Counted from the stretch's first letter, positions 8,644-50,685 are shown. The stretch: 64,000 bases of DNA from Pseudomonadota bacterium (GCA_022563685.1 JADFMY010000001.1:10707-74706), one strand, 5' to 3'. Numbers and translations: made by a program. Notes: generated by a model not told the origin, from the sequence alone.

Positions 8644-10812
8644 TCAGCTAGTATTTCTGGGGTCGTCTGGGTCGAGATGAAACTGTCCGTTTTGCATCCA
8701 TTTATCTTTAACCTGGTCAACAGTATGCGCTGTAATTTCCTGCTGCTTATGTTGCCTGGCCCAGGTTTCAATTTCCTGAATCAGCATGCCGCGAATCATC
8801 TTCGGCGCCCTGGCTATTTTATCCCTGGCAGCCGCTTGCCAGTTGAGCGATTCCTGCACTTTGTCCGAACCCTTTCGAAAGACTGTCATGATGTTTTTAA
8901 CAAACTCTACGTCGATAGACTGTAAGCCCGTTTTTCGGGCTATGGTTTCCATGGCATTAATGCCCATGTCCCGGCAGTAACCCTCGGGAATATTATCCAG
9001 CAGTTTTTTGGAACCCGGCTCCCATACCATTGCTGTATCCTCACCCACATCTGCTGTATCCTCACCCGCATCATCAGCCAGAGCCCTACCGGCAAACGGA
9101 CATTTACTCGCTTTAGGCGCGGGTTTTTCTCCACTCCTGACCTGCTCTTCCATTTCAAGGCGGGCAATTTCGAGTCCCTTTTCTACCACTTCCAGCGAGA
9201 TATTATGAGTGTTGGTTTTGATTGCATAATTTTCGATATTCTTTTTCGCCGTATCGCGCATAAATCCCTCTGGAGCCCGCATTAACCTCGCGATAGCTGC
9301 AGCCTCCCAGTGTAATTCCTGAACCTCGGTGGTTTCATCGCCGGATTCTCTGGTTTGCGTAAAGGGCTGTATATGCTGCACCTCAACTTGCCAGGTTTTA
9401 TCGGCGCGCGCCTTTTTTTCCGCGCGGCCCTTGAGATTCTCTCGCAGCGAGGGGTCGTTTACCGATTGCAATAGAACCTCCGCTGCGTCGCTCCAGACCA
9501 TAACTTGAGAGGTCACGGATTTTTTCAGTTCTCCACGATCGGCCGCATCTACGATTTCCTGCAGCGCATTTTCAGCATTACCCGGCATCAGTTCCGCGGT
9601 TGCCGCCTCGACGATACTTTCAGTGATTACCGTGTGACCCTTTTCATGGGCGTATCGTAAAATTGCCATCCTGGCCATCGGGCGCACAAAATCGGGCACC
9701 CTGAGCATGCGTTTTTCTGCTTCAACCGACCAGGAAGTGGTCGTTGCAGCGATACGATCGATACGCGGCTGGTGCTCCTGCATACTCAGCAAAATCGCAC
9801 AATTGACATTACGCAGCAAGTTTTCGGCGTTGCCGCCGATGTCGAGCTCAGGGTCGGCGTGGACACCCATTTTGCCAATGACCAGTAACGAGGGGTTTAT
9901 TTCGGCGACATATTTTTCAATCGCATCGTAGGCTTTACCATCCAGCAATCGGGTTTCAATTTCTACATCATAGTCCTGTGCTATCGATTGAGCGACATCC
10001 AGATGTCCCTGATATATCTTTGCGAGCCCCGAATCGATGATATCTTCATGCAGCTTTTCCTGCTCTTTGAACTTGAACACTTTTTCGGCCTCTTCGGATA
10101 GCACCTCGGCTATGCGGTTAAACGCCACATAGTGGTAATAAGGGTCAAACGTGGCGATGACTTTTATCTCGACCTGCCACTGTTTCGCCAGTGAAAATGC
10201 CGTGAGCAAAGCGCCGTATGACTTGCTCGAACCATCCAGCGCAACGACAATGGGGCCTTCACTGAGCTTACGCTGCGGCTGCTTGATAACCAGCGTATCG
10301 ATATTGCTGCGGCGTACAGTCCTGCCGCAAACGGTGCCGATACGACTACCCTCGATGGCGCCAACCCCAATCGATCCCATCACCAGCAAATCGTAAGTAC
10401 CGTTATTGGCCTCACCCACCAGGGCGCGGTAATTTTTGCCCTCAAGCGATGACCGGTGGAAATCTAATTCCTGCTGCTGACATAGCCTGTCGATCTGATC
10501 CAGATACGATTCGGTAATAATCGACAGGCCGCGCGTGATTAATTCGTTGTGTACCTCGCGCTGATGTTCGAGTTCCTGCTCTACCCGGTATTGCTCGGGT
10601 AAACCACCTTCCATCTGCCGAAAACGTAAATCGTGCATCTTCGCCGCATAGGCATGGGTACCCGTGATTTTGCTACCCCAGTATTGAGCCAACCTGACGG
10701 CTTCTTCGACTGCCTGGTTGGAGTGATCGGAAGAATCGACTGCCACCAGTATTGACTGGTATTGCGTTAACGGATCAAGTGACTTCTTCGGTTGTTGAGC
10801 GATTGCAGTCAT
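8644..10812 (-). CDS. multidomain protein: two universal stress protein (USP) domains followed by five PCP_red-like repeats
   Basis: ORF 8644..10947, trimmed to the ATG at 10812 (MTAIAQQPKK). USP blocks are ILVAVDSSDHS...LLVMGSIGVG and IVVALDGSSKS...LLVIGKMGVH. Five repeats of W-x2-x-A-x3-L-x2-P-x-(F/M)-(V/M/C)R...E..A follow. Confidence 0.75.
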   Translation of the reverse strand: MTAIAQQPKKSLDPLTQYQSILVAVDSSDHSNQAVEEAVRLAQYWGSKITGTHAYAAKMHDLRFRQMEGGLPEQYRVEQELEHQREVHNELITRGLSIITESYLDQIDRLCQQQELDFHRSSLEGKNYRALVGEANNGTYDLLVMGSIGVGAIEGSRIGTVCGRTVRRSNIDTLVIKQPQRKLSEGPIVVALDGSSKSYGALLTAFSLAKQWQVEIKVIATFDPYYHYVAFNRIAEVLSEEAEKVFKFKEQEKLHEDIIDSGLAKIYQGHLDVAQSIAQDYDVEIETRLLDGKAYDAIEKYVAEINPSLLVIGKMGVHADPELDIGGNAENLLRNVNCAILLSMQEHQPRIDRIAATTTSWSVEAEKRMLRVPDFVRPMARMAILRYAHEKGHTVITESIVEAATAELMPGNAENALQEIVDAADRGELKKSVTSQVMVWSDAAEVLLQSVNDPSLRENLKGRAEKKARADKTWQVEVQHIQPFTQTRESGDETTEVQELHWEAAAIARLMRAPEGFMRDTAKKNIENYAIKTNTHNISLEVVEKGLEIARLEMEEQVRSGEKPAPKASKCPFAGRALADDAGEDTADVGEDTAMVWEPGSKKLLDNIPEGYCRDMGINAMETIARKTGLQSIDVEFVKNIMTVFRKGSDKVQESLNWQAAARDKIARAPKMIRGMLIQEIETWARQHKQQEITAHTVDQVKDKWMQNGQFHLDPDDPRNTS
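9031..9072. repeat. in-frame 21-bp tandem duplication (2 units, 1 mismatch) inside the USP/PCP_red gene
   Basis: tgctgtatcctcacccacatc / tgctgtatcctcacccgcatc. These encode DAGEDTA / DVGEDTA in an acidic linker between repeats 3 and 4. Confidence 0.85.
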
Positions 10813-30185: not shown

Positions 30186-30959
30186 ATGATTTGCAGACTG
30201 ATAACGATCTTTGTGTTAGCCACTGCATGGATATGCCCTGTCCAGGCAATGTCTTCGGCCTCCCCCCTGGTAGCAACGGCATCAGGAATGCAATTTGCTA
30301 TCAGGGAAATTGCGCTTAAGTTTTATGAAGACACAGGTATTAAAGTCCGAATCACCCTTGGTTCTTCGGGAAACCTGTATCGACAGATCAAAAATAATGC
30401 ACCGTTTGATTTGTTTATATCCGCAGATAACTCACTCACAAAGAAACTTGAATCGGAGAAACTTACCCTGAACGACAGCGTAGTCATCGCTAAAGGCCGG
30501 TTGGTAGTATTCGCACCCAACGGTTCGCCATTAATCCCCGATGAACATCTTGGCGGGTTGAAAATCGCACTCTCTGAAGGCCAGATAACAAGATTTGCGA
30601 TTGCCAGTCCAAAGCATGCTCCCTATGGCCAAAGAGCAAAAGAGGCACTTCAATCGGCACAGCTATGGGAAGCGGTTAAGGATAAATTGGTGATTGGCGA
30701 GAATGTCTCTCAGGCGGCGCAATTCGTTGTTTCGGGTGCGGCACAAGGGGGTATAATTGCGCAATCCCTTGTTGTCGTGGATGAAATTTCACATCGGGGT
30801 CAGTATGCCCTACTACCCGAGTCCTGGCACCAACCTATACTTCATAGTATGGTGCTCCTAAAAAATGCAGACGAGGCCGCTTTAAAGTTATTCGAATATA
30901 TTAGGTCAATTAAAGGGCAGGATATACTATCACTCCATGGGTTTAACCCTTCTTACTAA
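30186..30959 (+). CDS. modA: molybdate ABC transporter substrate-binding protein
   Basis: Signal peptide. LGSSGNLYRQIKNNAPFDLFISAD matches the ModA block (SG.L..QI..GAP.D.F.SAD). Confidence 0.9.
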   Translation: MICRLITIFVLATAWICPVQAMSSASPLVATASGMQFAIREIALKFYEDTGIKVRITLGSSGNLYRQIKNNAPFDLFISADNSLTKKLESEKLTLNDSVVIAKGRLVVFAPNGSPLIPDEHLGGLKIALSEGQITRFAIASPKHAPYGQRAKEALQSAQLWEAVKDKLVIGENVSQAAQFVVSGAAQGGIIAQSLVVVDEISHRGQYALLPESWHQPILHSMVLLKNADEAALKLFEYIRSIKGQDILSLHGFNPSY

Positions 30960-30975
30960 TTTACCAGGCAAATAG

Positions 30976-31647
30976 ATGGATTGGGGAGCATTCAGGCTTT
31001 CACTACAGTTGGCCTTTTTCACCGTAATATTGTTACTACCGATCGCCGTCCTGATGGCTCGATGGCTGGTAACGCTTCCCCCAGCACCTAAGAGCATTAT
31101 TGAGTCATTACTGACCTTACCTCTCATCCTGCCCCCAACGGTACTGGGGTTTTTTCTTCTTATAACACTGAGCGACTCTTCTTCGATTGGACGAATATGG
31201 CGTTCTATCTTCGACGAATCTCTTGTCTTTACATTTGAAGGTTTGTTAGTCGCATCCATTATTGTCAATATCCCATTTGCTGTTCAACCGGCGCTCAGGG
31301 CATTTGAGGCGATAGGCAGTGATATGCGTGAGGCTGCAGAAACATGCGGTATGAGTTCGTGGCGATCATTCAGGCGCATTGAATTCCCCCTCGCCTGGCC
31401 AGGAATTCTCACCGGAGGGGTGCTCACATTCGCCCATACACTAGGCGAGTTTGGAGTTGTTTTAATGGTAGGGGGAAATATTCCTGGTGAAACACGCACT
31501 GTTGCAATTGCAATTTATGACCAGGTTCAGAGTTTTGATAATGCTTCGGCAGCAACCATGTCAGCCATCTTACTCGCGATATCACTCCTCGCAATCAGCA
31601 TCACCTTTCTATTAACGCGAAAAGCCCTCAGCAGGAACAGGTTGTAA
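30976..31647 (+). CDS. modB: molybdate ABC transporter permease
   Basis: FPLAWPGILTGGVLTFAHTLGEFGVVLMVGGNIPGETRT is the canonical ModB EAA-loop region. Confidence 0.9.
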   Translation: MDWGAFRLSLQLAFFTVILLLPIAVLMARWLVTLPPAPKSIIESLLTLPLILPPTVLGFFLLITLSDSSSIGRIWRSIFDESLVFTFEGLLVASIIVNIPFAVQPALRAFEAIGSDMREAAETCGMSSWRSFRRIEFPLAWPGILTGGVLTFAHTLGEFGVVLMVGGNIPGETRTVAIAIYDQVQSFDNASAATMSAILLAISLLAISITFLLTRKALSRNRL

Positions 31648-31648
31648 A

Positions 31649-32770
31649 TTGTCAGACCCAAATAGTTTAGAAGTCACGATACGACAAACCGACCCGGTTT
31701 TCCTGGATGTCCAATTTAAGGTCAGGGGATCCGAACTACTCGCCCTTGTTGGGCCTTCCGGGGGCGGTAAATCGACAATTTTAAGAACTATCGCAGGGTT
31801 CCAAAAGCCGATTTCCGGGAAGATAACTATCGGTGACAAGGTGTGGTTCAATAGTCAACGGAAAGTATCCGTGGCACCTCGACATCGTCGATTAGGTATG
31901 GTTTTTCAATCCTATGCTCTGTTTCCCCACTTGACAGCCATCGAAAATGTGATGGAATCGATTTCAAACCAACGGGCTACCAACAAAATTAATATGGCCA
32001 ATGAGTACCTGGCCCGAGTCAATCTCAAAGGTCTCGGTGACCGGCGCCCGGATCAGCTATCGGGAGGGCAACGGCAACGTGTCGCGGTCGCTAGAGCCCT
32101 TGCCAGGGAACCTGATGTGCTTTTGATGGACGAGCCCTTTTCTGCAGTTGATCGTGTCACCCGGACCCGGTTGCAACGGGAACTGATCGAACTACGATCA
32201 CATTTATCTATTCCAATAATCTTCGTTACGCATGACATGGAAGAGGCTGCTCGCCTGGCTGATCGGGTTGCCGTGCTCCATGAAGGGAGGATTTTACAAA
32301 CAGATTCGTATGAAACCCTGTCTAAGCGTCCTGTCAATACTACCGTGGCAAAGCTGGTTGGTATTCGAAATATATTTAACGGCAAAGTTTCGAAAATCAC
32401 CGATAACGAAGGAAGACTTCGTTTGCAATGGGGAAACTTTGTGCTGGATACTCCTTATCGAACGGGTTTTAGTGCGAACCAGTCGGTCACCTGGTGTATT
32501 CCATCAGATGGAATCGTGGTCCACCGGAGGAACAGACCTTCGCGAGGGGAGCACGAAAATCCGGTCTCCGGCATTGTTAGCGAACTGTTCCAATTTGGCC
32601 AGACAACCGAACTCATCATCGATGTCAGTGACCCAGACGCGCATCCACTACACTGTTCGATACCAACCCATGTAGCAAAGCGCAATGATATAAGCATTGG
32701 TGTAAATATTGGTGTCTCCCTCAAAGCTGATATGATTCATATCATGGCTGCTGAAAACGCGTGTTCCTGA
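31649..32770 (+). CDS. modC: molybdate ABC transporter ATP-binding protein with a C-terminal TOBE/Mop domain
   Basis: Walker A GPSGGGKST, signature LSGGQRQRV, Walker B LLMDEP. TTG start 2 nt after the modB stop. Confidence 0.9.
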   Translation: MSDPNSLEVTIRQTDPVFLDVQFKVRGSELLALVGPSGGGKSTILRTIAGFQKPISGKITIGDKVWFNSQRKVSVAPRHRRLGMVFQSYALFPHLTAIENVMESISNQRATNKINMANEYLARVNLKGLGDRRPDQLSGGQRQRVAVARALAREPDVLLMDEPFSAVDRVTRTRLQRELIELRSHLSIPIIFVTHDMEEAARLADRVAVLHEGRILQTDSYETLSKRPVNTTVAKLVGIRNIFNGKVSKITDNEGRLRLQWGNFVLDTPYRTGFSANQSVTWCIPSDGIVVHRRNRPSRGEHENPVSGIVSELFQFGQTTELIIDVSDPDAHPLHCSIPTHVAKRNDISIGVNIGVSLKADMIHIMAAENACS

Positions 32771-32843
32771 TTGCCCCGGAAAGGGCATCAAACTCCCGAG
32801 TGAAAATAATTTCTCCTCGCAAACCGTATTTAATCGTTTAGCT

Positions 32844-35219
32844 TCAAGTAGTCAGTGCAGAAAAAACCATAGGCAACCTTTCTGGCAATCGTTCGACATT
32901 CTCAACAATCGAATAGTTGTTTTCTCCAAATATGCGTGCTACATATCGATCAGCGTCTGGATCTAGCGTGAGGCAATAGGTATAAACCCCTTGCATGGCC
33001 AATTCCTCAACCGCTTTTTGGGCATCGTGTCGAAGATATTGCGGATCGCGTTCATCAATATCGGCTGGTTCGCCATCGGTCACTAACAACACGAGGCGTT
33101 TAGTGGCATTTTGTTCCTTTAAATGGAAACCTGCGTGCCGCAGAGCTGCTCCCATGCGCGTTGATAATCCGCCATTCATGCCGGCCAGTCGAGATTTGGC
33201 TTCATCATCGTATCTCTGGTTAAAGTCTTTAAACCGATAATATTGCACATCATGCCGGCCATTCGATGCAAAGCCATGCACCGCAAAAGTATCACCAATG
33301 GCATCGATTGCCCAGGACAATAATCCAGTTGCCTCACGTGTCAAACTGAGGATGCTGGGCGCCTCGGCATAACCTTCGTCTCCTTCGGTTATATCACCAA
33401 TTTTTTCGTTGGTTGATTCCGATAAATCCATTAGAACCAGGATAGCGAGATCTCGATTGTGGCGAGTGATACGTATATTGATTCGCGGGTCAGGCATAAC
33501 ACCGCGACGAATATCGATCATGGCGCGAACTGCCGCATTCAAATCCAGCTCCTCACCTTCTTCATATCCTCGGCGTCGCACTATACCCTGTGGCTGCAGG
33601 GCATCGATCAGGTGTTTAATTCGAGCCGCAATCGGTTTATGCCGGGTTAGTATTTCATCCATCACATCGGGATTACCTTTAGGCTGGCGGTGCTCGATCA
33701 CCGTGGCCCAATCGGGCCGTGCTAATTGCACCCGATAATCCCATTCATCGTAATGATAGGGTTGCGAGACAGGTTCCTTACCCTCGAGCTCATTGATGGT
33801 GCACCCCTCCTGGTCAAGCCAAAATGGCGTCGATAGTGTCCAGATTTCCTGCGCATCATCGCCGGCCAGCTCACAATCAAGGGTATTGACCATTTCCATT
33901 AGACCAACGCTACGCCGCAACTGTTGCTGACTATCTGGTTGATAATCAAGGCCCTCCTGGACAAACATGTTTTCGGAAAAAGCCCAGCAATAACGATTGT
34001 CATCGCGGTACGGGATCGGCATATTTTCCAGTATTCGAACCGATGGAATCGCTGCGTATTCAACAATACGGTTATAAAACTCGATACCAAATTGCCATGA
34101 AATACGATTATCGTGAGGATTCTGGGCAAGCCTGGTTCTAAAATCGGCGGCAAATTGATGGATAAATTCAATCTCAGCATTGTATTTTTCATCCAGAAGT
34201 GAATAGGCCAGGTTAACCATTAAATCCATGGATTCATGTAGCTCGGTGTCTTCATTTGAAGATTTATATGCGATGAAAAAACGAATCCAGAGCTTTTTCA
34301 ATCCCGGAAAGTCCTGTATCGCGAGATACTCAACGCGCGCATCTTCGAATAGTCCAATAAATAGCATTTGCGCCTGGGATAATTGTTCCGCACTCATAGA
34401 CTGTTTGGTATAGACCATGTGCGCTGCACAGTGAGCCGCCGATGCACGATATATCTCAAGTCCCTGAATGTCATGAAACGAATCAAATGCGTCCGGAAGA
34501 TATATCTGAAAACTTTCAATATAAGGACGCAAGCCTTCTCTATTCTCATAATCACCCGACGTAGGCCGCATAAAGAAGGACCGACCCCAGAGGGCGCGTA
34601 AATAGAAATTCAGCTTTCTTTGATTATTGATAAACAAGGTTCCGCGCCGCTCTTTTTGCAATACGGAGCGTGAAGACTCTGTATTCAGCGCAAAGTAAGC
34701 CATTTGATTGTCGAGGTCACGCGCGTGTGCCTGCGCGCCCCATAAGGCCCAACGCCTTAAGCCACCCAAAGTCAGCTTACTGAGCAATTCATCGAGATTT
34801 TCCATCATCGGCCGCAAGCCGCGCGGAGCTTTTCCCGCAAGATTGTGAAGCAATTTGAGATAGCCGCGGACGACTTCTGCATCGCCAAGCCGACGAGCAG
34901 CTAAAGACATTTCAGACAGTATCAGGATAATGACGCTACCCGAGGTGTGCGACGACAACTTCATCATCGCATGAACAATATCTGGCACTATATCTTCGCC
35001 AATTTCTCTGGCGACGCCTGGCATCTCCTGGACATAGGTGAGCACCAAATCCCTGTTATTGCCCAGCGAGTAGATCGCACGCATGCCCTCTAAATAATTT
35101 TTTAACCCCTGTGGTGACATCACGCGAGCTGCCTCGCGATATGAAGATTCTAGCGTTTGACGATCTGTGGTATCGTCTTCATCAAGGAAATTGAGGTATT
35201 CTGAAAAATTGATCGGCAT
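32844..35219 (-). CDS. cbbO: RuBisCO activase adaptor CbbO (von Willebrand factor A domain)
   Basis: ~790 aa with a C-terminal VWA/MIDAS block (LVLMDLSESTNE...LVLLVTDGEPADID). It follows cbbQ. The ATG at 35219 (MPINFSEY) is preferred because the track start overlaps cbbQ. Confidence 0.85.
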   Translation of the reverse strand: MPINFSEYLNFLDEDDTTDRQTLESSYREAARVMSPQGLKNYLEGMRAIYSLGNNRDLVLTYVQEMPGVAREIGEDIVPDIVHAMMKLSSHTSGSVIILILSEMSLAARRLGDAEVVRGYLKLLHNLAGKAPRGLRPMMENLDELLSKLTLGGLRRWALWGAQAHARDLDNQMAYFALNTESSRSVLQKERRGTLFINNQRKLNFYLRALWGRSFFMRPTSGDYENREGLRPYIESFQIYLPDAFDSFHDIQGLEIYRASAAHCAAHMVYTKQSMSAEQLSQAQMLFIGLFEDARVEYLAIQDFPGLKKLWIRFFIAYKSSNEDTELHESMDLMVNLAYSLLDEKYNAEIEFIHQFAADFRTRLAQNPHDNRISWQFGIEFYNRIVEYAAIPSVRILENMPIPYRDDNRYCWAFSENMFVQEGLDYQPDSQQQLRRSVGLMEMVNTLDCELAGDDAQEIWTLSTPFWLDQEGCTINELEGKEPVSQPYHYDEWDYRVQLARPDWATVIEHRQPKGNPDVMDEILTRHKPIAARIKHLIDALQPQGIVRRRGYEEGEELDLNAAVRAMIDIRRGVMPDPRINIRITRHNRDLAILVLMDLSESTNEKIGDITEGDEGYAEAPSILSLTREATGLLSWAIDAIGDTFAVHGFASNGRHDVQYYRFKDFNQRYDDEAKSRLAGMNGGLSTRMGAALRHAGFHLKEQNATKRLVLLVTDGEPADIDERDPQYLRHDAQKAVEELAMQGVYTYCLTLDPDADRYVARIFGENNYSIVENVERLPERLPMVFSALTT

Positions 35220-35241
35220 GGCGGTACCAGCGATTGACTCA

Positions 35242-36048
35242 CTAGAAAAAGGTATTAACCGCAGCATCGAGGGTATCGCGCATATCCGGATCATCCGTTA
35301 GAGGCGTCACCAGTGCCATTTTGCAGGCCTGTTCAGGATTGATCCCTTTCGAAATCAGTTGCGCAGCATAAATTAGCAGGCGGGTTGACATGCCTTCATC
35401 TAGACCATGCCCTTTTAAGTTTCGCGACCGATGAGCAACCTGCACCAGTTTTTCGGCGATGTCATTTTCCACACCACCTTCGTGTTTGACAATTTCAATT
35501 TCGGTTTCAGTTCCAGGGTAGTTAAAATCGATACCACCAAAACGTTGCTTGGTCGATTGCTTGAGATCTTTCATCAAAGACTGATAACCGGGGTTATACG
35601 AAATCACTAATTGAAAATTTTCATGAGCCTTCACCAGTTCGCCTTTTTTCTCTAAAGGCAGTTCGCGACGATGATCGGTTAAAGGATGAATCACAACGGT
35701 AGTATCCTGACGTGCTTCGACCACTTCATCGAGATAACATATCGCACCAATGCGTGCTGCTACTGTTAGTGGCCCGTCCTGCCACTTTGTGCCATTGATG
35801 TCGAGCAGAAAACGGCCAACTAAATCGGATGCTGTCATGTCTTCATTACAGGCGATCGTGATCAATGGTCTATGTAGCCTCCATGCCATGTATTCGACGA
35901 ATCGAGTTTTGCCGCACCCAGTCGGTCCTTTAAGCATGACCGGCATTCGCACATCGTAAGCCGCTGTATATAATTTCACCTCGCTATCAATAGCAAGATA
36001 ATAAGGTTCGTTTTCGATGAGATATTGATCGCTATCGATTTCACTCAT
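35242..36048 (-). CDS. cbbQ: MoxR-type AAA+ ATPase CbbQ (RuBisCO activase)
   Basis: Walker [18 protein letters not shown], 268 aa, sitting between cbbS and cbbO. Confidence 0.9.
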
Positions 36049-36153
36049 ATGAAAATCCTTTCATTAGCACTGTTTGGTAGATCGACTTCGAGGAAAAAAT
36101 GATGCTTTTGTTCCTGCAATAGAAACAAAAGCATCCAATCACACAGAGGAGAT

Positions 36154-36510
36154 TTAAACTGCTTTTCCACGATATATGACCATTTCTGCTCCCTTTGATT
36201 GAGAGAAATTGTCAAATCCGACCAGGCGAACATGATTTTTGGGGTGGGCCTGATGACAGGCATCGACTTCAGCCAATATTAAATCGACGTCGGTTTCACC
36301 AAACATCGGCAATTTCCACATATACCAGTAGGAACCGAAAGCATTTTCCGGCTCGGTGTGTTCGACGGCCGGATTCCAGCCCTGCTTCACAATATACTCT
36401 ACCTGCTGGCGAGTTTGATCTGCATTCATTGCAGGTAAATAGGAGAAGGTCTCAAATTTCCGACTCGCAACATCGGACAAACTTGACGCATAATCTCGTA
36501 CTTCGCTCAT
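36154..36510 (-). CDS. cbbS: RuBisCO small subunit
   Basis: [26 protein letters not shown]...[12 protein letters not shown]. Trimmed to the ATG at 36510 because the track start overlaps cbbL. Confidence 0.9.
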
Positions 36511-36553
36511 GATTAATTCCTCAACAAATCTCAAAACTTCATCTAGTGGCAGC

Positions 36554-37978
36554 TTATTTGTGGGCAACGTCGAGCTTGTCTACAGTATCAAACTCGAATT
36601 TGATTTCTTTCCAGGTTTCCATCGCAATCGCGAGTTCGGGGCTTGATTTAGCCGCGCTAGTGAGAATATCCTTCCCTTCTTTTTCAAGTTCACGACCCTG
36701 ATTACGCGCTTCTACACAGGCCTCAACCGCAACACGGTTAGCACAAGCTCCGGCAGCATTGCCCCAGGGGTGACCGAGTGTTCCACCACCGAACTGTAAG
36801 ACCGAATCGTCCCCAAAAATATTGACCAGTGCCGGCATGTGCCAGACATGGATACCACCCGATGCAACCACAAACACACCTGGCATTGAACCCCAATCCT
36901 GATCGAAGAAAATTCCACGTGAACGGTCTTCTTTGATGTAAGATTCACGCAGCAGATCGATCCAGCCCAAAGTCGCGTCTCTATCGCCTTCTAATTTACC
37001 CACCACCGTGCCGGTATGGAGATGATCGCCGCCAGACAGTCTGAGAATTTTGGCTAAAACACGAAAGTGAATACCATGGTGCGGATTTCTATCCATAACC
37101 GCATGCATTGCACGGTGAATATGCAGCAGCATACCGTTGGCCTGGCACCATTGAGCCAGGCCTGTATTGGCGCATAACCCCCCGGTTAAATAGTCATGCA
37201 TAATAATTGGGGCACCTATTTCTTTAGCATATTCAGCGCGTTTCATCATTTCGTCTGGTGTCGGCGCTGTAACGTTCAGGTAATGACCTTTGCGTTCACC
37301 CGTTTCTGCTTCTGCCTTGTGAATCGCTTCCATGACGAAATCGAAACGATGACGCCAGCGCATGAATGGCTGGGAGTTGACATTTTCATCGTCTTTGGTG
37401 AAATCCAGCCCACCGCGTAAACCTTCATAACAGGCGCGGCCATAGTTTTTTGCTGACAGGCCCAGTTTAGGTTTGATGGTACAACCCAATAGCGGCCGTC
37501 CATATTTATTCAGGATGTCACGCTCAACCTGGATACCCTGTGGTGGTCCATTGCAGGTCATGACGTAAGCGATTGGAAAACGGATATCTTCAAGGCGTAA
37601 TGCTCGTAACGCCTTAAATCCGAATACATTGCCAACCAGTGATGTGAAAACGTTAACGACTGAGCCCTCTTCAAACAAATCAATGGGATAAGCAATGAAA
37701 GCATAGAAGCAGGTATCGTCGCCCGGCACATCTTCAATCGCGTAGGCGCGCCCCTTGTAATAATCCAGGTCGGTCAACAGATCTGTCCAGACTGTTGTCC
37801 AGGTGCCCGTAGACGATTCAGCAGCAACCGCGGCAGCGACTTCTTCTCGTGGAATGCCGGCCTGAGGCGTTATTTTGAAACAGGCTAAAATATCAGTTGC
37901 CTTTGGCGTGTAATCTGGCTCCCAATAGGTTTCACGATAATCTTTAACACCTGCGGTATAGGTTTTTCTCGAGTTCAT
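36554..37978 (-). CDS. cbbL: RuBisCO large subunit, form IA
   Basis: 474 aa with [38 protein letters not shown] and [11 protein letters not shown]. Confidence 0.95.
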
Positions 37979-37996
37979 CTTTATATCTCCAAATTG

Positions 37997-39079
37997 TCAG
38001 GCCGCACTCTGGTTGGTCGTTGGCTTCGGGTCGAGCGCACCGCTGGCATAGCACCTTGCCATCTCGGCAACGCTGATCGGTGTGATTTTTGAAGCCTTTC
38101 CCGCGCTTTCAAACTGTTCGAAGCGATCACGACAAAGTTTCTGCATGGCATCCCGTGCCGGCGCCAGGAATTTACGCGGGTCAAACTGTAATTTATCCTG
38201 TTGCGCAATTTTTCTGAACTCGCCGGTCATCGCCAGTCGACAATCGGTATCGATATTAACTTTGCGAACTCCGTGTTTGATTCCGCGCACAATCTCCTCA
38301 ACTGGTACTCCATAGGTTTGTGGCATTTCGCCACCAAACTCATTGAAAATATCCTGCAGCTCCTGTGGTACCGACGACGAGCCATGCATAACAAGATGTA
38401 CTTCAGGGAGTTTTGCATTGATTTTCCGCACTACATCCATCGCGAGAATATCGCCATCGGGTTTACGGCTAAACTTATATGCTCCATGCGACGTGCCCAT
38501 TGCAATTGCGAGCGCATCAACCTTTGTTTTGGTCACAAAATCGACCGCTTGATCCGGGTCGGTGAGTAATTGATCCATGCTTAAACTGCCTTCAAATCCA
38601 TGCCCGTCTTCTTTTTCGCCTTCGCCGGTTTCAAGCGAACCGAGACATCCAAGTTCGCCTTCGACCGAAACACCGATATCGTGTGCAATGCGTGTAACTT
38701 CGGAAGTAATATCGAGGTTGTATTCATAACTTGCAGGGGTTTTGGCGTCAGCTTCGAGCGATCCATCCATCATTACTGAGGTAAAGCTTGCCTGCATGGC
38801 AGAAACGCAGGTCGCCCGGTTATTTCCATGATCCTGGTGCAGGCAAATTGGAATTTGTGGATACATTTCTTCCGCGGCTTCGACCATTTTGCGGATCATG
38901 ATATCGCCCGCATAACCTCGCGCGCCGCGACTGGCTTGTAAAATGACAGGCGCATCCACAGCTTTAGCCGCTTCCATGATCGCCAGTACCTGTTCCATAT
39001 TGTTAATATTAAAAGCCGGTACTCCGTATCCGTATTCGGCTGCATTGTCGAGCAATTGCCGTAGTGTAATTCGTGCCAT
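37997..39079 (-). CDS. cbbA: class II fructose/sedoheptulose-bisphosphate aldolase, Calvin-cycle subtype
   Basis: [50 protein letters not shown] at 39079. Confidence 0.9.
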
Positions 39080-39212
39080 TTTTATAGTCCTCCTATACTC
39101 CAAAGCCAACAAGCAAATCCATCGCGTTCACCATTTCATGTGGTTCTTGTTTCTCTATTTGATTTGATTCCATTGGGGTATTCACGGTGAACTCCGATAT
39201 AAATAATTCTCT

Positions 39213-40088
39213 CTAACCAGCACGTCGCTTACGTTCTACCAACTGCATAACTAATGGGGTAAAAACCAGTTGCATCGCCAGATCAAACTTGCCGCCGGGA
39301 ATCACAATGGTATTAGGTCGCGACATAAAACTGTTGTGAATCATGCTTAGCAAATAGGGAAAATCGATTCCCTTTGGATCGGCGAAACGTATTACTACCA
39401 TCGATTCATCGGCTGTCGGAATCCACCGGGCTATAAACGGATTTGACGTATCTACAATCGGTACGCGCTGAAAATTGACATCGGTATTGGTAAATTGAGG
39501 ACAGATATACCTGATATAATCAGGCATTCGTCGAAGTATGGTGTCGGTTACTGCCTCCGGCGAGTAACCACGCACCAACTTGTCTCGGTGAATTTTTTGA
39601 ATCCATTCAAGATTTGTTACTGGAACCACACCAACCTTCAGATCTGCATACTGGGCTACGTTTGCCTGCTCAGTGTTTATTGCACCGTGCAATCCTTCGT
39701 AAAACAATAAATCGGTACCTTCCGGAAAATCTTCCCAATCGGTGAAGTTCCCAGGTTCAACTCCGTATATTTTTGCTTCATCCTCATCATGGGCATAATG
39801 CCGTGTTCTACCGGTACCCGTCTCGCCATACTGTTTAAATACACCCTCAAGTTCTGAAAATAGATTTGCCTCCGGACCGAAATGACTGAAATTTCTATCC
39901 CCTGTTTTTTCGGCACTATCCATGGCATTTTTCATTTGCTTTCGGTTATAACGATGAAAGGCGTCACCTTCGATATAACAGGCGTACACATTTTCACGCA
40001 TATAAATATGTTCAAAGGTATCTTTGACTGTCGATGTGCCCGCGCCTGACGAACCTGTTATTGAGATGACTGGATGCTTCCTGGACAT
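39213..40088 (-). CDS. prk: phosphoribulokinase
   Basis: MSRKHPVISITGSSGAGTSTV P-loop, 291 aa, in the cbb cluster. Confidence 0.9.
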   Translation of the reverse strand: MSRKHPVISITGSSGAGTSTVKDTFEHIYMRENVYACYIEGDAFHRYNRKQMKNAMDSAEKTGDRNFSHFGPEANLFSELEGVFKQYGETGTGRTRHYAHDEDEAKIYGVEPGNFTDWEDFPEGTDLLFYEGLHGAINTEQANVAQYADLKVGVVPVTNLEWIQKIHRDKLVRGYSPEAVTDTILRRMPDYIRYICPQFTNTDVNFQRVPIVDTSNPFIARWIPTADESMVVIRFADPKGIDFPYLLSMIHNSFMSRPNTIVIPGGKFDLAMQLVFTPLVMQLVERKRRAG

Positions 40089-40095
40089 ACTACTT

Positions 40096-41127
40096 CTAGC
40101 GCCTTAGCAAACTAGGATTTTGAAAAAGAGGAAACCGGGTGTTGGCGGTAAAGTCACCAGAGATATAATCCATAACCTCGGCAACCTTATCTCGCGAACC
40201 AAATATCAATGGAATTCGCTCATGAAGCGAGGTCACCTCAATATCCAGGATTATTTGATTCCCGTCCGAAGCCGCCCCACCCGCTTGCTCAACTATAAAA
40301 GCAAGGGGTAACGCATCGTAAAGCAATCGAAACCTGCCTTTCTCAAACCCTGTCCTGGAGTCGCCTGGATAAAGAAAAACGCCACCCCAAACAAGAATAC
40401 GGTATGCCTCCGCCACCAGGGACGCGTTCCAACGCATTCTGTAGTTCACGCCCAGAGGTCCATCTTCTCCAGATATGCAATCGTCAATAAAATATCTAAT
40501 CGAACTATCCCAGAACCGATAATTCAAAGTGTTTATTGCAAGCTCTCTTTGAGCAGTAGGGATCCTGATATTTTCACTGACCAGCAAGAATTCGGAACCA
40601 ACATGCTCAAGAGTGAAAGTGTGTGTACCCTTACCACAGGTAAGAACCAGTGAGGTTTGAGGGCCATAAACCAGGAATCCTGCAGCTACCTGTCGTTCAC
40701 CAATACTCCCTTCGAAAACCCGGCCTGAATCAAATCTAAGTATCGAAAATATAGTCCCTATTGACATATTAGATTCAATATTTGTTGAGCTATCGAGCGG
40801 GTTAATCGCAACCGCGAGTGTGCCTTTAGGATTTAGTGGAACAGCCTCTGATTTTTCTGCGGATGCCAGGTAAGCAACGGGCGCATTGTATAATGCTTCC
40901 TCAAACACATTGTTAGCCACGATATTTAAAGGCTTTTGAGTATCGCCATCTGGGTTTTGCGCCCCAGCGGCTTCATCATACCTGGCCAAACTATGGCGAG
41001 AAATTAATTTAGACAAATTAATCCCTGCTTCCGCAATACTCGTTATGGTAGAACACAGGTCTCTGCTTGAGGTGTCATCGCCCACCCGCGACAGTAAAAA
41101 TTGATTAAGAGTACTTCTGGCACTCAT
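40096..41127 (-). CDS. cbbF: class 1 fructose-1,6-/sedoheptulose-1,7-bisphosphatase
   Basis: NPLDSSTNIESN (metal site DPLDGSSN-like), GPQTSLVLT, GVFLYPGD, LLYDALPLAFIVEQAGG. ATG at 41127. Confidence 0.85.
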   Translation of the reverse strand: MSARSTLNQFLLSRVGDDTSSRDLCSTITSIAEAGINLSKLISRHSLARYDEAAGAQNPDGDTQKPLNIVANNVFEEALYNAPVAYLASAEKSEAVPLNPKGTLAVAINPLDSSTNIESNMSIGTIFSILRFDSGRVFEGSIGERQVAAGFLVYGPQTSLVLTCGKGTHTFTLEHVGSEFLLVSENIRIPTAQRELAINTLNYRFWDSSIRYFIDDCISGEDGPLGVNYRMRWNASLVAEAYRILVWGGVFLYPGDSRTGFEKGRFRLLYDALPLAFIVEQAGGAASDGNQIILDIEVTSLHERIPLIFGSRDKVAEVMDYISGDFTANTRFPLFQNPSLLRR

Positions 41128-41185
41128 GCAAACCTCCCCCACTCGGCCTTTATCGATGTAACGAAATACTGTCACACTTGATTTT

Positions 41186-41198
41186 TAAGTAAAGTTAA
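41186..41198. promoter_or_regulatory. TNA-N7-TNA LysR/CbbR-type box in the cbbR-cbbF divergent region
   Basis: TAAGTAAAGTTAA. The context is AT-rich, so a chance match is quite possible. Confidence 0.2.
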
Positions 41199-41213
41199 AA
41201 TATCTTAAGACGA

Positions 41214-42146
41214 ATGAAAGAAAAACTTTACCCCTGGGCAAGGCAATTAACACTCAAGCAACTGCGTGGATTTCATGCCGTTGTTGGGGCTGGCAGTATT
41301 TCAGGCGCAGCCAGGAAGCTGCATTTGACCCCACCCGCTGTATCGCTGCAAATCCGAGGTCTCGAAAATGCGACAGGAATTCCTCTACTCGAACGTAGCG
41401 AAATCGGTTTGGTTCCCACGCTTGGGGGAGCAGCCCTGTACACACTTGCCGTTAACATGCACTCTGTACTTTATGAGTTCGCCGAAACATTGGACGAACT
41501 GAAAGGCGTGGATCACGGTATTGTCTCTGTCGGCGTGGTGAGCACGGCACGCTATTTCGCACCAACAGTACTCGCTGAATTCAATAAGCTTTACCCCGAG
41601 GTTAAATTGCAATTATCGGTAGGCAACCGTGAAATCATTGTGAATAAACTGGGGAATCTCGAACTGGACATTGCCATTACCGGGCTCCCTCCTGATAATT
41701 TTGAGGTTGAAAGCGAGTACATCGGTAAACACCCTCAAATAATCATCGCACCACCCGATCATGAGTATTCGACAAGCACTCAAATCTCACTCGTAAGCTT
41801 AAAAGATCAAACTTTTCTGCTACGCGAACCTGGTTCGGGAACACGCTCGGTTGCAGACAAGTTGTTTAAAAACGCCAGATTCATGCCTGCATCTGGAATT
41901 GAATTCGGTAGCAACGAAACGATTAAACAGGCTGTTATGGCCGGTATGGGCATTGCGTTAATCTCTGCCCATACGGTTGCAGCCGAATTAAAAGATAAGC
42001 GACTAGTCGCACTTGATGTTAAAGGTCTGCCCATCAACCGGAAATGGTTTGTCGTTAAAAACCAGAAAAAACGTTTTTTGCCATCGGCACAAGCGCTGTG
42101 GAATTTTATTGCTCGCAGTGGTAAACGTTATTTACCAAAGCCATGA
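41214..42146 (+). CDS. cbbR: LysR-family transcriptional regulator CbbR
   Basis: N-terminal HTH (LTLKQLRGFHAVVGAGSISGAARKLHLTPPAVSLQIRGLE). Divergent from the cbb operon. Confidence 0.85.
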   Translation: MKEKLYPWARQLTLKQLRGFHAVVGAGSISGAARKLHLTPPAVSLQIRGLENATGIPLLERSEIGLVPTLGGAALYTLAVNMHSVLYEFAETLDELKGVDHGIVSVGVVSTARYFAPTVLAEFNKLYPEVKLQLSVGNREIIVNKLGNLELDIAITGLPPDNFEVESEYIGKHPQIIIAPPDHEYSTSTQISLVSLKDQTFLLREPGSGTRSVADKLFKNARFMPASGIEFGSNETIKQAVMAGMGIALISAHTVAAELKDKRLVALDVKGLPINRKWFVVKNQKKRFLPSAQALWNFIARSGKRYLPKP

Positions 42147-42158
42147 TTTTCATAGGAG

Positions 42159-42258
42159 TGTTAGCGAACTGTTCCAATTTAGCCAGGCAACTGAACTCAC
42201 CATCGATGTCAATGACCCAAACGCGCATCTGCAACACTGCGAAAGACGCGTGTTCCTA
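42159..42258 (+). pseudogene. modC: decayed second copy of the modC 3' end
   Basis: 42159-42243 aligns with 32575-32660 at roughly 85-90% identity by eye. The tail 42244-42258 aligns with 32755-32770 (gaaa[a/g]acgcgtgttcct). About 95 bp is missing in between, which breaks the frame. Confidence 0.75.
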
Positions 42259-42837
42259 GTCGCTTCTCCAGATCGAGAGCAGGTCATGCCCATTCTTACG
42301 TGGATAAGCGTGCGTGGTGCCTGAATGAGTTCCCATCACTACAAAGCCAACGAGATGCTCCTCAGGTTTTAATCGAAACGCCTGCCGCATCGTATTCGAT
42401 CGAACACGACGACCACTGACAATCTTTCCTTTATAACCAAACGATTCTAAAGCCAGTAGAACGTTTTGCAGCGATGCGCCTACTGAAATCCATTGCTCGT
42501 GTGGTGGAACCGCGATATTGAGTTCAGATATGTAAGCGATGATTGCGACCAACATGGCGCCGTTCATTGCTTTTAGCCGAATTTCTTCGAGGTAATCACT
42601 CGCTAAACCCTTATTTTCAACTCTAGCGGCTGACTCAAATACGGTTGCCATGGATTCACGCTCATCCTTTGGAATAAGAACAAATCGAACTGGCGCCATC
42701 CGCCCATGATCTGGCGCCGCTCCGGCAGTGCCAATAATTTCAATGAGTTCATCCCAACTGGGTGCTGGCTCCTTCAGATGTTTGGGTGAAACAGACCGAC
42801 GCGTGAGAATTGATTTGATGATTCTATTAATAGTCAA
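42256..42837 (-). CDS. nitroreductase family protein
   Basis: ILTRRSVSPKHL...APDHGRMAPVRFVLI and a C-terminal GF.VMG-type block. Confidence 0.8.
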   Translation of the reverse strand: MTINRIIKSILTRRSVSPKHLKEPAPSWDELIEIIGTAGAAPDHGRMAPVRFVLIPKDERESMATVFESAARVENKGLASDYLEEIRLKAMNGAMLVAIIAYISELNIAVPPHEQWISVGASLQNVLLALESFGYKGKIVSGRRVRSNTMRQAFRLKPEEHLVGFVVMGTHSGTTHAYPRKNGHDLLSIWRSD

Positions 42838-42977
42838 AATATAATCATTAGGCGTTGTAATTGGGCTCTTTGCTGCAGGGCAAGATACCCTACATCTAAA
42901 AATTTAAAAACCCAACGCTCATAGAATTTATTCGAAAATTGAATAATCGACCGAGGAGCCGGTATTCATGACCAAGA

Positions 42978-42993
42978 AACCAGGCGCCTGGTT
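42978..42993 (-). terminator. GC-rich palindrome downstream of the TorD-like gene (possible terminator)
   Basis: AACCAGGCGCCTGGTT is a perfect 16-nt palindrome. On the minus strand it is followed by TTTCTTGG. Confidence 0.3.
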
Positions 42994-43086
42994 GGACGCC
43001 TGAAATGAGGAGAAAAAAACGACCCTTAACGATCAACCAGTTTGTGGTTCTTCATTGGCATCGAGTTAACTGTTAACCCGGTAGGC

Positions 43087-49015: not shown

Positions 49016-49047
49016 AACACGCCCTGAGGTGGACAGCAACCCAGTAT

Positions 49048-50310
49048 TCAAGTTTTCACCGCAAACTTCAGTAATGGAGAGCCTCGGTCTTTAAGCGCCT
49101 GAAGATACTTTGATTCATCGTAAGGTTTACGATCTTTCCAGCATCTAAAAATGATTCTGATCCACTTGAATGCGAGTGAGCGGATAATCGTATTGTGTGG
49201 TTTTCCTTTTTGCATTTGTTGTTCGTAATAAGCCCTGGCCCAGAAGGAGTATCGAACGGTTTGCCCCGCCCATTCAACAAAGGTTTGTCGCAAGAATGTT
49301 GGACAACTGTATCGCCAGTGAGTCCAGCTCTTTTGGCCGCTTTGCTCGATCACGGGAGCGACACCACTGTATTTCTGTAGCTCGGCAGCGGCTTGATAAC
49401 GCTCACGATCGCTACCAAAAGCGACCAGTAGTCGCGGTGCGAACTGGGGTCCTGCGCCAGGCAGAGAATCGAACAGGGATCGATCTCGCATCGGTTTATA
49501 TAGACGACTGATTTCAGCATCGAGTCGTTTAATACCATCGAGCAAGTGCTTGAGTTGCGGCATGAGGACTTCGATGAGGATACGATTAGGCTTAATGATA
49601 CCCTCATCATCGGTCAGAGTGATCGCCGATTTAATCGCGTCGATACGGAGCTGATTGACCTGGAGATAGCGTGCGTTATGGGCATTGAAGAACGCCATCA
49701 AGGTTTTCTTTCGCGCCCGTTTGACTAGTACCAGTGATGGCCATTTAATGATGAAGTCACAAAAAACGTGCGTGTCTTTTTCGTTAAACCAATCAAGTAC
49801 TTGTGGATAGTAGTTCTTCAAAGTCGCGGTAATACAGTTGGTCAGATCGACGCGATCCTGTACCAGTTTACGCCGATATTCCAGTAGTTGTGCCAATGCA
49901 CGAACATCCGCTGACTCGGGCTGGATGGGTTTGAGCTTATCCATGTGTTTTTCCAGTATCTCGGTTTGCAGGTAAGCATCGCCGGGATCATCCTTTGCGC
50001 CACTTAAGGAGAAGGCTTTGCGATACCTCGCCACGGTTGCAGGATTAATCGGAAAGATGATGAGGTTGTTATATCGACTCAAGGCATAGATCAACGGCCC
50101 TTTTTTTAGTTCACACGCCACAGCAACGACCTGGCCTGGATAACGATTCTCCAATGCCGTGGCCCAGGCGTGCAGATCAGCTGGTTGACTGGAGATCACT
50201 GACCATTGGTAGTCTTTGGTTCCGATAGCTAATTCACAGATATCGTGTTTCTTATCTGCCCAGTCAATCCCGACAATGGCAGCAAAGTCATCGATAGAAA
50301 AATCTTTCAT
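49048..50310 (-). CDS. IS110-family DEDD transposase/recombinase
   Basis: N-terminal IVGIDWADKKHDICE...DDPGDAYL (DEDD_Tnp_IS110). C-terminal LDSLPGAGPQFAPRLLVAFG...YSGVAPVIEQSGQKS (Transposase_20). Confidence 0.9.
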   Translation of the reverse strand: MKDFSIDDFAAIVGIDWADKKHDICELAIGTKDYQWSVISSQPADLHAWATALENRYPGQVVAVACELKKGPLIYALSRYNNLIIFPINPATVARYRKAFSLSGAKDDPGDAYLQTEILEKHMDKLKPIQPESADVRALAQLLEYRRKLVQDRVDLTNCITATLKNYYPQVLDWFNEKDTHVFCDFIIKWPSLVLVKRARKKTLMAFFNAHNARYLQVNQLRIDAIKSAITLTDDEGIIKPNRILIEVLMPQLKHLLDGIKRLDAEISRLYKPMRDRSLFDSLPGAGPQFAPRLLVAFGSDRERYQAAAELQKYSGVAPVIEQSGQKSWTHWRYSCPTFLRQTFVEWAGQTVRYSFWARAYYEQQMQKGKPHNTIIRSLAFKWIRIIFRCWKDRKPYDESKYLQALKDRGSPLLKFAVKT

Positions 50311-50500
50311 CTGAGTGCTCCTGGCGTTACAGTTTGTATTGGAATGTGCTTGAACTCGTTTCTCGCAGGTCTTATAGAAAGTCGGTATGACGACAATCCC
50401 TGAGTATGCGTTTTGAAACGGTTCACTTCTGCTGACTCGAACGTCTTGTTAAAAACATTTGGGATGTCTTTGCGCTCAAATATTCGTAGTCAGCAGAAGC
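50311..50500 (-). ncRNA. candidate IS110 bridge/seek-RNA region (structured 5' non-coding end)
   Basis: A long-range stem: cttctgctgact(c)gaa at 50426-50441 pairs with ttcg(t)agtcagcagaag at 50483-50499. That is 12 perfect bp plus 4 bp after a 1-nt bulge, with a ~41-nt loop, immediately upstream of the transposase start. Confidence 0.25.
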
Positions 50501-50685
50501 ATGTTCCACCGAAACAGCAATAAAGGAAAATGATCAATTGATGGAACGGTCCAACTATAAGCGGTCAAATGGGGAAAATATTAAGTGCGAAGAACACTTC
50601 ACTTTTCCCCAGAAAGGAGTTAAAAATGATCTTGTCGGGCATAGCCAGGCAGTATCCCTGTGAAGTACATTAATGAGGAACAACA

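Follow-up and report, generated by a model that had tools for sequence, protein, structure and literature searches.

A decayed second copy of the modC tail beside a Calvin-cycle operon as the probable scar of an insertion or rearrangement within a marine-sediment lineage

The window analysed here is the whole 64,000-nt stretch from a Pseudomonadota bacterium (GCA_022563685.1, JADFMY010000001.1:10707-74706), and coordinates refer to it unless another contig is named. In this window a 9.4-kb block of Calvin-cycle (cbb) genes lies between the intact 3' end of a modC-like gene, designated T1, and a second, shorter copy of the same 3' end, designated T2, which runs into the stop codon of a convergent nitroreductase gene (Table 1). 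According to Pfam, all eight open reading frames (ORFs) between the two copies are cbb genes (cbbO, cbbQ, cbbS, cbbL, fba, prk, fbp, and cbbR), as the first-pass annotation, made from the sequence alone, had listed them. Since the intergenic gaps are too small to hold another gene, there is neither a transposase nor an integrase gene within the block.

The repeat itself is recognised by the alignment of 32575-32655 with 42159-42239, which extends over 81 nt without gaps and has 72/81 identical positions and 9 mismatches. When the segment 42100-42300 is compared with the entire window by short-word blastn, this modC block is the sole significant non-self match, and its E value of 1.6e-25 rules out chance similarity. 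A second alignment, 32748-32768 vs 42237-42257, is identical at 18 of 21 positions and includes the exact 12-mer ACGCGTGTTCCT. Taken on its own, this tail block has an E value of only 0.42; it is, however, collinear with the 81-nt block, ends at the modC stop codon, and is corroborated by the undeleted allele of a related contig described below. The two alignments have offsets of 9584 and 9489, and the difference of 95 nt is an internal deletion in T2 that shifts the frame, with a 3-nt CTG microhomology present. Similarity between T1 and T2 ceases no more than ~3 nt from the modC stop. The last bases of T2 include the stop codon of the nitroreductase gene (42256-42258, CTA on the plus strand). 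The nine or so mismatches, the origin of the remnant tail from the end of modC, the frame-shifting loss of ~95 bp, and the coincidence of the remnant end with the nitroreductase stop had all been noted in the first-pass annotation and are borne out. An ORF at 42013-42324, which reads the remnant in the modC frame, was considered as a gene and rejected, because its TTG start lies inside cbbR, it is frameshifted by the deletion, and it shows no codon-position bias. The stretch 42159-42259 is best annotated as a pseudogene fragment of modC rather than as an ORF.

Table 1. Features of the mod-cbb-nitroreductase region of the 64-kb window
Feature	Position	Strand	Description
modA	30186-30959	+	molybdate/tungstate-type ABC binding protein; Pfam SBP_bac_11 (6e-56)
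modB	30976-31647	+	ABC permease; Pfam BPD_transp_1
modC	31649-32770	+	modC-like ABC ATPase, intact, 373 aa; Pfam ABC_tran
T1	32570-32770	+	twice-present part of intact modC (codons ~308-373 + stop)
T1 segment A	32575-32655
T1 segment B	32656-32747		absent from T2
T1 segment C	32748-32770
Spacer	32771-32843		73 nt, modC stop to cbbO stop; holds left edge of cbb block
cbbO	32844-35294	-	Pfam
cbbQ	35242-36048	-	Pfam
cbbS	36154-36567	-	Pfam
cbbL	36554-37978	-	Pfam
fba	37997-39112	-	class II; Pfam
prk	39213-40088	-	Pfam
fbp/cbbF	40096-41175	-	Pfam
cbbR	41214-42146	+	LysR regulator, divergent from cbb operon; Pfam HTH_1, LysR_substrate
Joint	42147-42158		illegitimate; cbbR stop + 6-12 nt fused to modC ~32570-32575
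T2	42159-42259	+	displaced modC tail; 95 nt of B deleted
T2 segment A'	42159-42239
T2 segment C'	42237-42259
Nitroreductase gene	42256-42837	-	convergent; Pfam Nitroreductase 9e-19

The same arrangement is present in 4 same-species contigs from different samples, which are 99.8-99.9% identical to the window. It also occurs in 3 other lineages (L123-L125, L132, and L133), located via CbbR homologues, and in contigs of at least 8 public runs; it is older than the species. L133 (~94% nucleotide identity to the window) and L123, L124, and L125 (~85%, three samples) all have the same joint and the same 95-nt deletion, and the deleted form of the remnant is found as well in contigs of runs X8, X9, X12, X13, and X14. 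The longest exact word common to the two copies in the window is 22 nt, and none reaches 31 nt, the length from which a de Bruijn assembler could be misled.

A longer form of the second copy is provided by L132, a 6117-nt contig of run X7, in which cbbR is followed by 12 nt, by 197 nt collinear with window positions 32575-32771, and then by the nitroreductase gene. The 197-nt copy matches this part of the window at 176/197 positions with no gaps. Since the whole copy is carried by L132, the second copy must have started out with all of the final ~200 nt of modC duplicated, and the deletion is secondary. Recent gene conversion was considered as the source of the full copy and rejected, because at no fewer than 11 of 95 sites its B segment departs from the intact modC tail that occurs with it, and it has private changes. 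Along 40100-43010, identity between L132 and the window amounts to 98-100% through cbbR, drops to 88-89% at ~42190-42394, and then takes values of 100%, 95%, 97%, 84%, and 87%. Such abrupt shifts show that strains have often undergone homologous recombination at this locus, and the mosaic fits an old allele moved by inter-strain homologous recombination.

The locus contains exactly one unnatural joint, at which the cbbR stop plus 6-12 nt meets the interior of modC in mid-codon, and this joint is the same in the window, L123, L132, and L133; in L123 the tail similarity begins at 32570. The remaining three boundaries are natural gene ends, namely the modC stop and the cbbO stop on the two sides of the spacer, and the end of T2 overlapping the nitroreductase stop. 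No inverted repeats are found at 32771-32843 or 42147-42158, and the repeat is ~200 bp long, vs 2-14 bp for the target duplication of a transposon or insertion sequence (IS). Transposon- or IS-mediated insertion is rejected on the lack of terminal inverted repeats, a transposase, and a short target duplication, an IS91/ISCR-like fragment being found beside the block in L123 only. An integrase-borne island or prophage in the 3' end of the gene is rejected too, as there is no recombinase gene between the repeats and the composition is not distinct. The features that are seen agree with a single crossover or with homology-facilitated illegitimate recombination (HFIR): direct repeats flank the insert, the upstream copy lies within intact modC, and the downstream copy is 5'-truncated. 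Similarity that ends within a few nucleotides of the modC stop is what incoming DNA built as modC tail-spacer-cbb would leave, provided that homology in modC anchored it and one illegitimate joint closed it.

How similar the copies were at their origin is indicated by a three-way site comparison within the 81-nt block between intact modC, the window remnant, and the L123 remnant. The intact gene agrees with the window remnant against L123 at 11 sites and with the L123 remnant against the window at 6, all three differ at 3, and the number of sites at which the two remnants agree against the intact gene is 0. With L132 and L133 added, which gives four T2 copies, 0/81 sites set all second copies apart from the intact copy, and at most 2 sites (32597 and 32628) are ambiguous. 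As there is no shared state specific to T2, the copies are estimated to have been ~97-100% identical when formed. Such near-identity speaks for an event within one lineage or population and against a xenologous modC, and the first-pass proposal of an older or xenologous modC is not supported.

Composition and protein affinities point in no other direction. The cbb block has a GC content of 0.469 and GC at third codon positions (GC3) of 0.41-0.48, like modABC and the nitroreductase gene, and its tetranucleotide distance to the rest of the window is 0.151 vs a mean of 0.140 (sd 0.016), with 19% of other 9.4-kb segments being as far or farther. According to these measures, the block does not stand out in composition. 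One and the same group of uncultured marine Gammaproteobacteria is nearest to both the Cbb and the Mod proteins (CbbL ~90%, ModC ~70-74%), and the earlier suggestion of horizontal acquisition is not supported.

As for selection, the 9 differences of the window T2 fall on the three codon positions as 3/4/2, and 7 of the 8 changed codons are non-synonymous. In comparison with 42 ModC homologues, T2 has lost the invariant residues G317 and P333, as well as L334, from which a single homologue deviates. The L132 copy has 21 differences distributed as 8/7/6, of which 5 are synonymous and 15 non-synonymous, in addition to a stop change from TGA to TAA. Between the window and L123, T2 identity is 75-80%, other intergenic DNA has ~80%, and four-fold sites of the cbb genes have 67%. 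No terminator-like site and no folding signal is detected in T2 (fold z-scores of -0.04 and +0.48). By these measures, T2 evolves neutrally and is not under protein-level selection. The sole evident role left to T2 is to provide, with its last three bases, the stop codon of the nitroreductase gene, and the CCTA motif at its end is kept in all four lineages. The stop codon of intact modC is TGA in the window, related strains have TAA there (X7, X18, and X19; 32769 G>A), and all second copies have TAA or TAG. Since only TA(A/G) yields the nitroreductase stop on the opposite strand, a change of modC to TGA would have become possible once the tail had moved away from the nitroreductase gene. In metatranscriptomic data, one read-sized contig of a 'metatranscriptomic WGA' run spans 42183-42333; it is unstranded and very thin, and may represent DNA.

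Genes homologous to those of the block were also compared in other lineages, where the cbb and mod genes have different surroundings. L128, L129/L130, and L131, whose CbbR is 71-74% identical, carry the same cbb operon. In all of them, RND efflux genes adjoin it beyond cbbR; beyond cbbO, where only L129/L130 provide sequence, it is bordered by genes for cytochrome c, HAD, and 5'-nucleotidase. No modC trace is found at the cbb operons of these three. In L128-L131 and L123 the gene order is like that of the window, with cbbR divergent from fbp-prk-(tkt)-fba-cbbL-cbbS-cbbQ-cbbO. In L126 (CbbR 84%) the motif T(A/T)TTCA after the cbbR stop is common with the window, and the sequence then diverges into a fumarase context. 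The ModC relatives L085-L088 (70-74%) have no cbb genes downstream, and the genes that do follow are variable and unrelated. Two of them, L087 and L088, also have the upstream neighbours of the window, namely NnrS and haem-maturation/bd-like oxidase genes; this common upstream synteny places modABC in its ancestral position. With modABC in its old place, a variable spot 3' of modC, and a different home of cbb in the wider group, these contexts support relocation of cbb into the modC/nitroreductase junction, which probably occurred in the common ancestor of the window and L123.

Several further observations concern the operon in these lineages. A transketolase gene (tkt) is located between fba and prk in L128 (5084-7093) and L131 (5975-7984), and is missing from the window, L129, and L123. 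In L123, fba is deleted, and a stub of its last 30 codons is left between cbbL and prk (6832-6921). The same L123 contig (from GCA_006243215.1) has at 1-1700 only the last ~100 nt of modC (from window position ~32663-32676), joined immediately behind the stop codon of a CDF cation-efflux gene that neighbours merR. At its other side (9890-10576), a fragment of a rolling-circle transposase of the IS91/ISCR type comes after the deleted remnant and ~50 nt from the 3' end of the nitroreductase gene; the fragment scores 20.7 bits with Pfam Y2_Tnp and 38 bits with NCBIfam ISCR_clade_Ia and has ~62% identity to plasmid IS91-family transposases according to tblastn. In L123, the cbb block appears to have been cut out together with both scars, which may represent a second mobilisation of the operon. 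As a separate matter, an IS110 element at window positions 49018-50558 is absent from L133 (8977-8978), where the flanks meet cleanly with a 2-nt overlap; L133 represents the empty site for this element, and its insertion is thus recent and strain-specific.

As for the genes flanking the block, the modC-like protein obtains 218 bits with the NCBIfam model TIGR02142 modC_ABC vs a cut-off of 285, and the PhnT2 and PotA models score similarly. The gene belongs to an operon with an SBP_bac_11 binding protein and a permease near Mo enzymes, and its homologues are named molybdate transport ATP-binding protein by JGI; the substrate of the transporter, taken from the operon context only, fits molybdate or tungstate. 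The ModC homologues used (n=42) have 65-75% identity, and their C-terminal motifs FGQTTEL, HPLHCS, PTHVA, and KADMIHIM are kept in the intact modC of the window. CbbR homologues have 84-92% and 68-74% identity. The nitroreductase has 193 aa vs 192 aa in a homologue and is full length. The spacer between modC and cbbO is 80% identical to that of L123 and holds a small GC hairpin (32773-32786) with fold z-scores of -0.8 and -1.4; terminator and promoter scans and RNA folding gave nothing significant there or in T2. Polymorphism is also seen in the spacer, with a 41-nt indel at 32784-32826 in contigs of runs X9 and X12 and several small indels at 32809-32817 in contigs of other runs.

Taken together, these data suggest, with a probability of about 75%, that T2 is a non-functional scar, produced when the cbb block was inserted or rearranged within the lineage. 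From the structure we infer the ancestral adjacency of modC and the nitroreductase gene, the incoming side, and the route of recombination. In the ancestor, a member of a marine-sediment gammaproteobacterial clade, modABC would have stood head-on to the nitroreductase gene with overlapping stop codons (CCTA(A/G)). A 9.4-kb block consisting of a copy of the modC tail, the 73-nt spacer, cbbO-Q-S-L-fba-prk-fbp, cbbR, and ~7 nt more would then have entered. On the left side, homologous exchange within modC would have kept the gene intact and yielded T1, and on the right side the cbbR stop plus 6-12 nt would have been joined illegitimately to modC at ~32570. The intermediate may have been a circularised fragment that carried the gene-end segment and integrated by a single crossover, or linear DNA recombining by HFIR; for this specific route the odds are about even. 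The original modC 3' end (last ~196-201 nt) would have stayed beside the nitroreductase gene as T2, still giving its stop codon, and would have drifted neutrally ever since, with 95 internal bases lost in most lineages and all 197 kept in one. The donor would have been the same lineage or population and not a distant organism.

The first-pass annotation had likewise read the remnant as an insertion or rearrangement scar at an ancestral modC/nitroreductase junction. The decayed scar, the coinciding gene ends, the full copy in L132, and the other contexts of cbb and mod speak for it, but no relative with modC abutting the nitroreductase gene is found. This missing empty site is one of several points that weigh against the scar interpretation: in a scan of metagenome contigs, nitroreductase homologues have at most 50% identity and none lies beside modC. 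No donor-type arrangement, i.e., modC-cbb followed by something else, is found among relatives either, and a ModC scan of genome contigs returns mostly generic ABC ATPases, with a best match of 54% identity and no useful synteny. The distribution of alleles is also awkward, as the deleted allele occurs in the most distant lineage, L123, and the undeleted one in the close mosaic strain L132. This needs either inter-strain recombination of the old allele or, less likely, two identical deletions at the CTG microhomology. Moreover, the intact modC of run X7 has three states of the T2 copies (32603G, 32608T, and 32628A), a hint that gene conversion or recombination has acted between the copies or near them, which blurs polarity. 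Finally, the left edge of the block is not placeable within the spacer, and the same final structure would result if the right-hand DNA (T2, the nitroreductase gene, and the Mo-enzyme operon) came in, or via replication template switching.

The last of these possibilities belongs to a broader alternative, in which the block was inserted duplicatively in situ without a modC tail in the donor. Replication could have left at the modC stop, copied cbb, and returned ~200 nt behind, or the block could have been inserted at staggered breaks ~200 nt apart, so that the two tails would be a long target duplication. Such an event accounts for tails that were essentially identical at origin without any prior modC-cbb adjacency in a donor, agrees with the lack of mobility genes and terminal repeats, and suits the notion that survival under selection demands both overlapping convergent genes intact, hence a duplication. 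It is nevertheless an unlikely explanation, because the left switch or break must fall exactly at the modC stop, a position that homologous exchange with a gene-end fragment explains for free. Target duplications of ~200 bp are also not known as a regular product of bacterial insertion mechanisms. Acquisition from a distant donor, whose xenologous modC and cbb genes recombined in so that the remnant is the tail of an older resident modC, appears quite improbable. An intact gene, an insert, and a displaced tail are the expected leftovers of xenologous replacement, the cbb context is unlike that of relatives at 71-74% CbbR identity, and the region is recombinogenic according to the L132 mosaic and the IS91/ISCR-like fragment of L123. 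A xenologue would, however, differ mainly at synonymous sites, whereas the differences between the copies are mostly non-synonymous and no site of the 81 unites the second copies against the intact one. In addition, GC, GC3, and tetranucleotide distance remain within the spread of other segments of this length, and the affinities of CbbL and ModC to the same marine Gammaproteobacteria are compatible with vertical descent.

Maintenance of T2 by selection as a functional element, such as a small TOBE-like peptide, a 3' untranslated region or terminator for cbbR or the nitroreductase gene, or an antisense RNA to the modC 3' end produced by nitroreductase read-through, is highly improbable. T2 does persist across lineages that are ~15% diverged, is slightly more conserved than four-fold sites, and in L132 comprises 65 stop-free codons in a frame open upstream; its last three bases do act as a stop codon, and the WGA contig covers part of it. 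However, its substitutions are spread evenly over the codon positions with loss of invariant residues, the deletion that shifts its frame is the usual allele, its level of conservation is that of intergenic DNA elsewhere, neither a terminator nor a folding signal is predicted, and the RNA signal has the weaknesses given above. The first-pass annotation had expected a functional element to reveal itself by an arrangement common to relatives with both copies under purifying selection; the arrangement is indeed common to relatives, but the second copy is without such selection. As for chance similarity or an assembly artefact, the only point in its favour is the 21-nt tail block, which is not significant alone. 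Given the E value of the 81-nt block, an identical structure in independent assemblies and runs, and the absence of a long shared exact word, the chance of such an error is practically nil.

If the scar interpretation is correct, a complete Calvin-cycle operon has moved in this uncultured chemolithoautotroph of marine sediments, and the scar marks a boundary of that movement to the base pair. The operon would have moved in a single compact piece, unaccompanied by any recognisable mobile element, and its source would have been the lineage or population itself, not a remote organism. Together with its full-length and deleted alleles, the scar offers a natural marker with which recombination between strains can be followed; it reveals no new mechanism or gene function. 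A more far-reaching and improbable idea is that the cbb operon is a repeatedly mobilised 'autotrophy cassette' in populations of marine-sediment sulfur oxidisers, which first travelled as a circular or linear fragment via the ~200-bp modC anchor and was then re-mobilised in L123, scars included, beside an IS91/ISCR-type transposase and a merR-CDF metal module. Were this true, the modC tails would be portable homology able to target the cassette to modC in other genomes.

In comparison with known operons, the cbb genes of the window form a non-carboxysomal cbbLSQO-type operon with a divergent cbbR, as in gammaproteobacterial sulfur oxidisers. Unlike the operons of L128 and L131, it is without tkt, and unlike those of relatives, which are flanked by cytochrome c/HAD and RND efflux genes, it has modC on one side and T2 with the nitroreductase gene on the other.

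The closest experimental parallel is the E. coli lacZ system, in which a single crossover of a circle carrying a gene-end fragment yields duplications of 109-950 bp flanking the insert (PMC3240628). As in such single-crossover (Campbell-type) and HFIR events, the insert at the cbb locus lies between direct repeats of part of a homologous gene (~200 bp here), the intact gene includes one copy and the other lacks its 5' part, one joint is homologous and one illegitimate, and no transposase or integrase is needed. Unlike the lacZ test system, the cbb event is natural and ancient and involves a whole 9.4-kb operon; and, unlike classical HFIR, which usually deletes recipient DNA, the cbb locus has a duplication.

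Integrative elements that bring a substitute 3' end of their target gene are known as well, such as phage 21 and e14 in E. coli icd and many islands in tRNA/tmRNA genes. With them the locus shares a gene kept intact by an element-borne 3' end and an original 3' end left as a pseudogene fragment at the far side. In contrast to these elements, the cbb block contains only cbb genes, with no integrase, excisionase, or other mobility gene, and is not distinct in composition, and while their substitute ends can be diverged, the modC copies appear to have been near-identical at origin.

A further relation is to the displaced 'orphan' 3' fragments of genes that lie behind loci for T6SS effectors, Rhs, and CDI, an example being the sequential displacement model reported for Vibrio cholerae (PMC5361080). 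The likeness is that the end of a gene is replaced by a module coming in with a homologous 5' anchor, and the old end is pushed downstream as a fragment. In such loci, however, the displaced pieces reportedly remain functional as immunity genes and the process is recurrent and adaptive, whereas the modC tail would derive from a single event and its displaced piece decays. The kind of scar is therefore well known, and the present instance is new and well resolved, with a polymorphic full-length allele.

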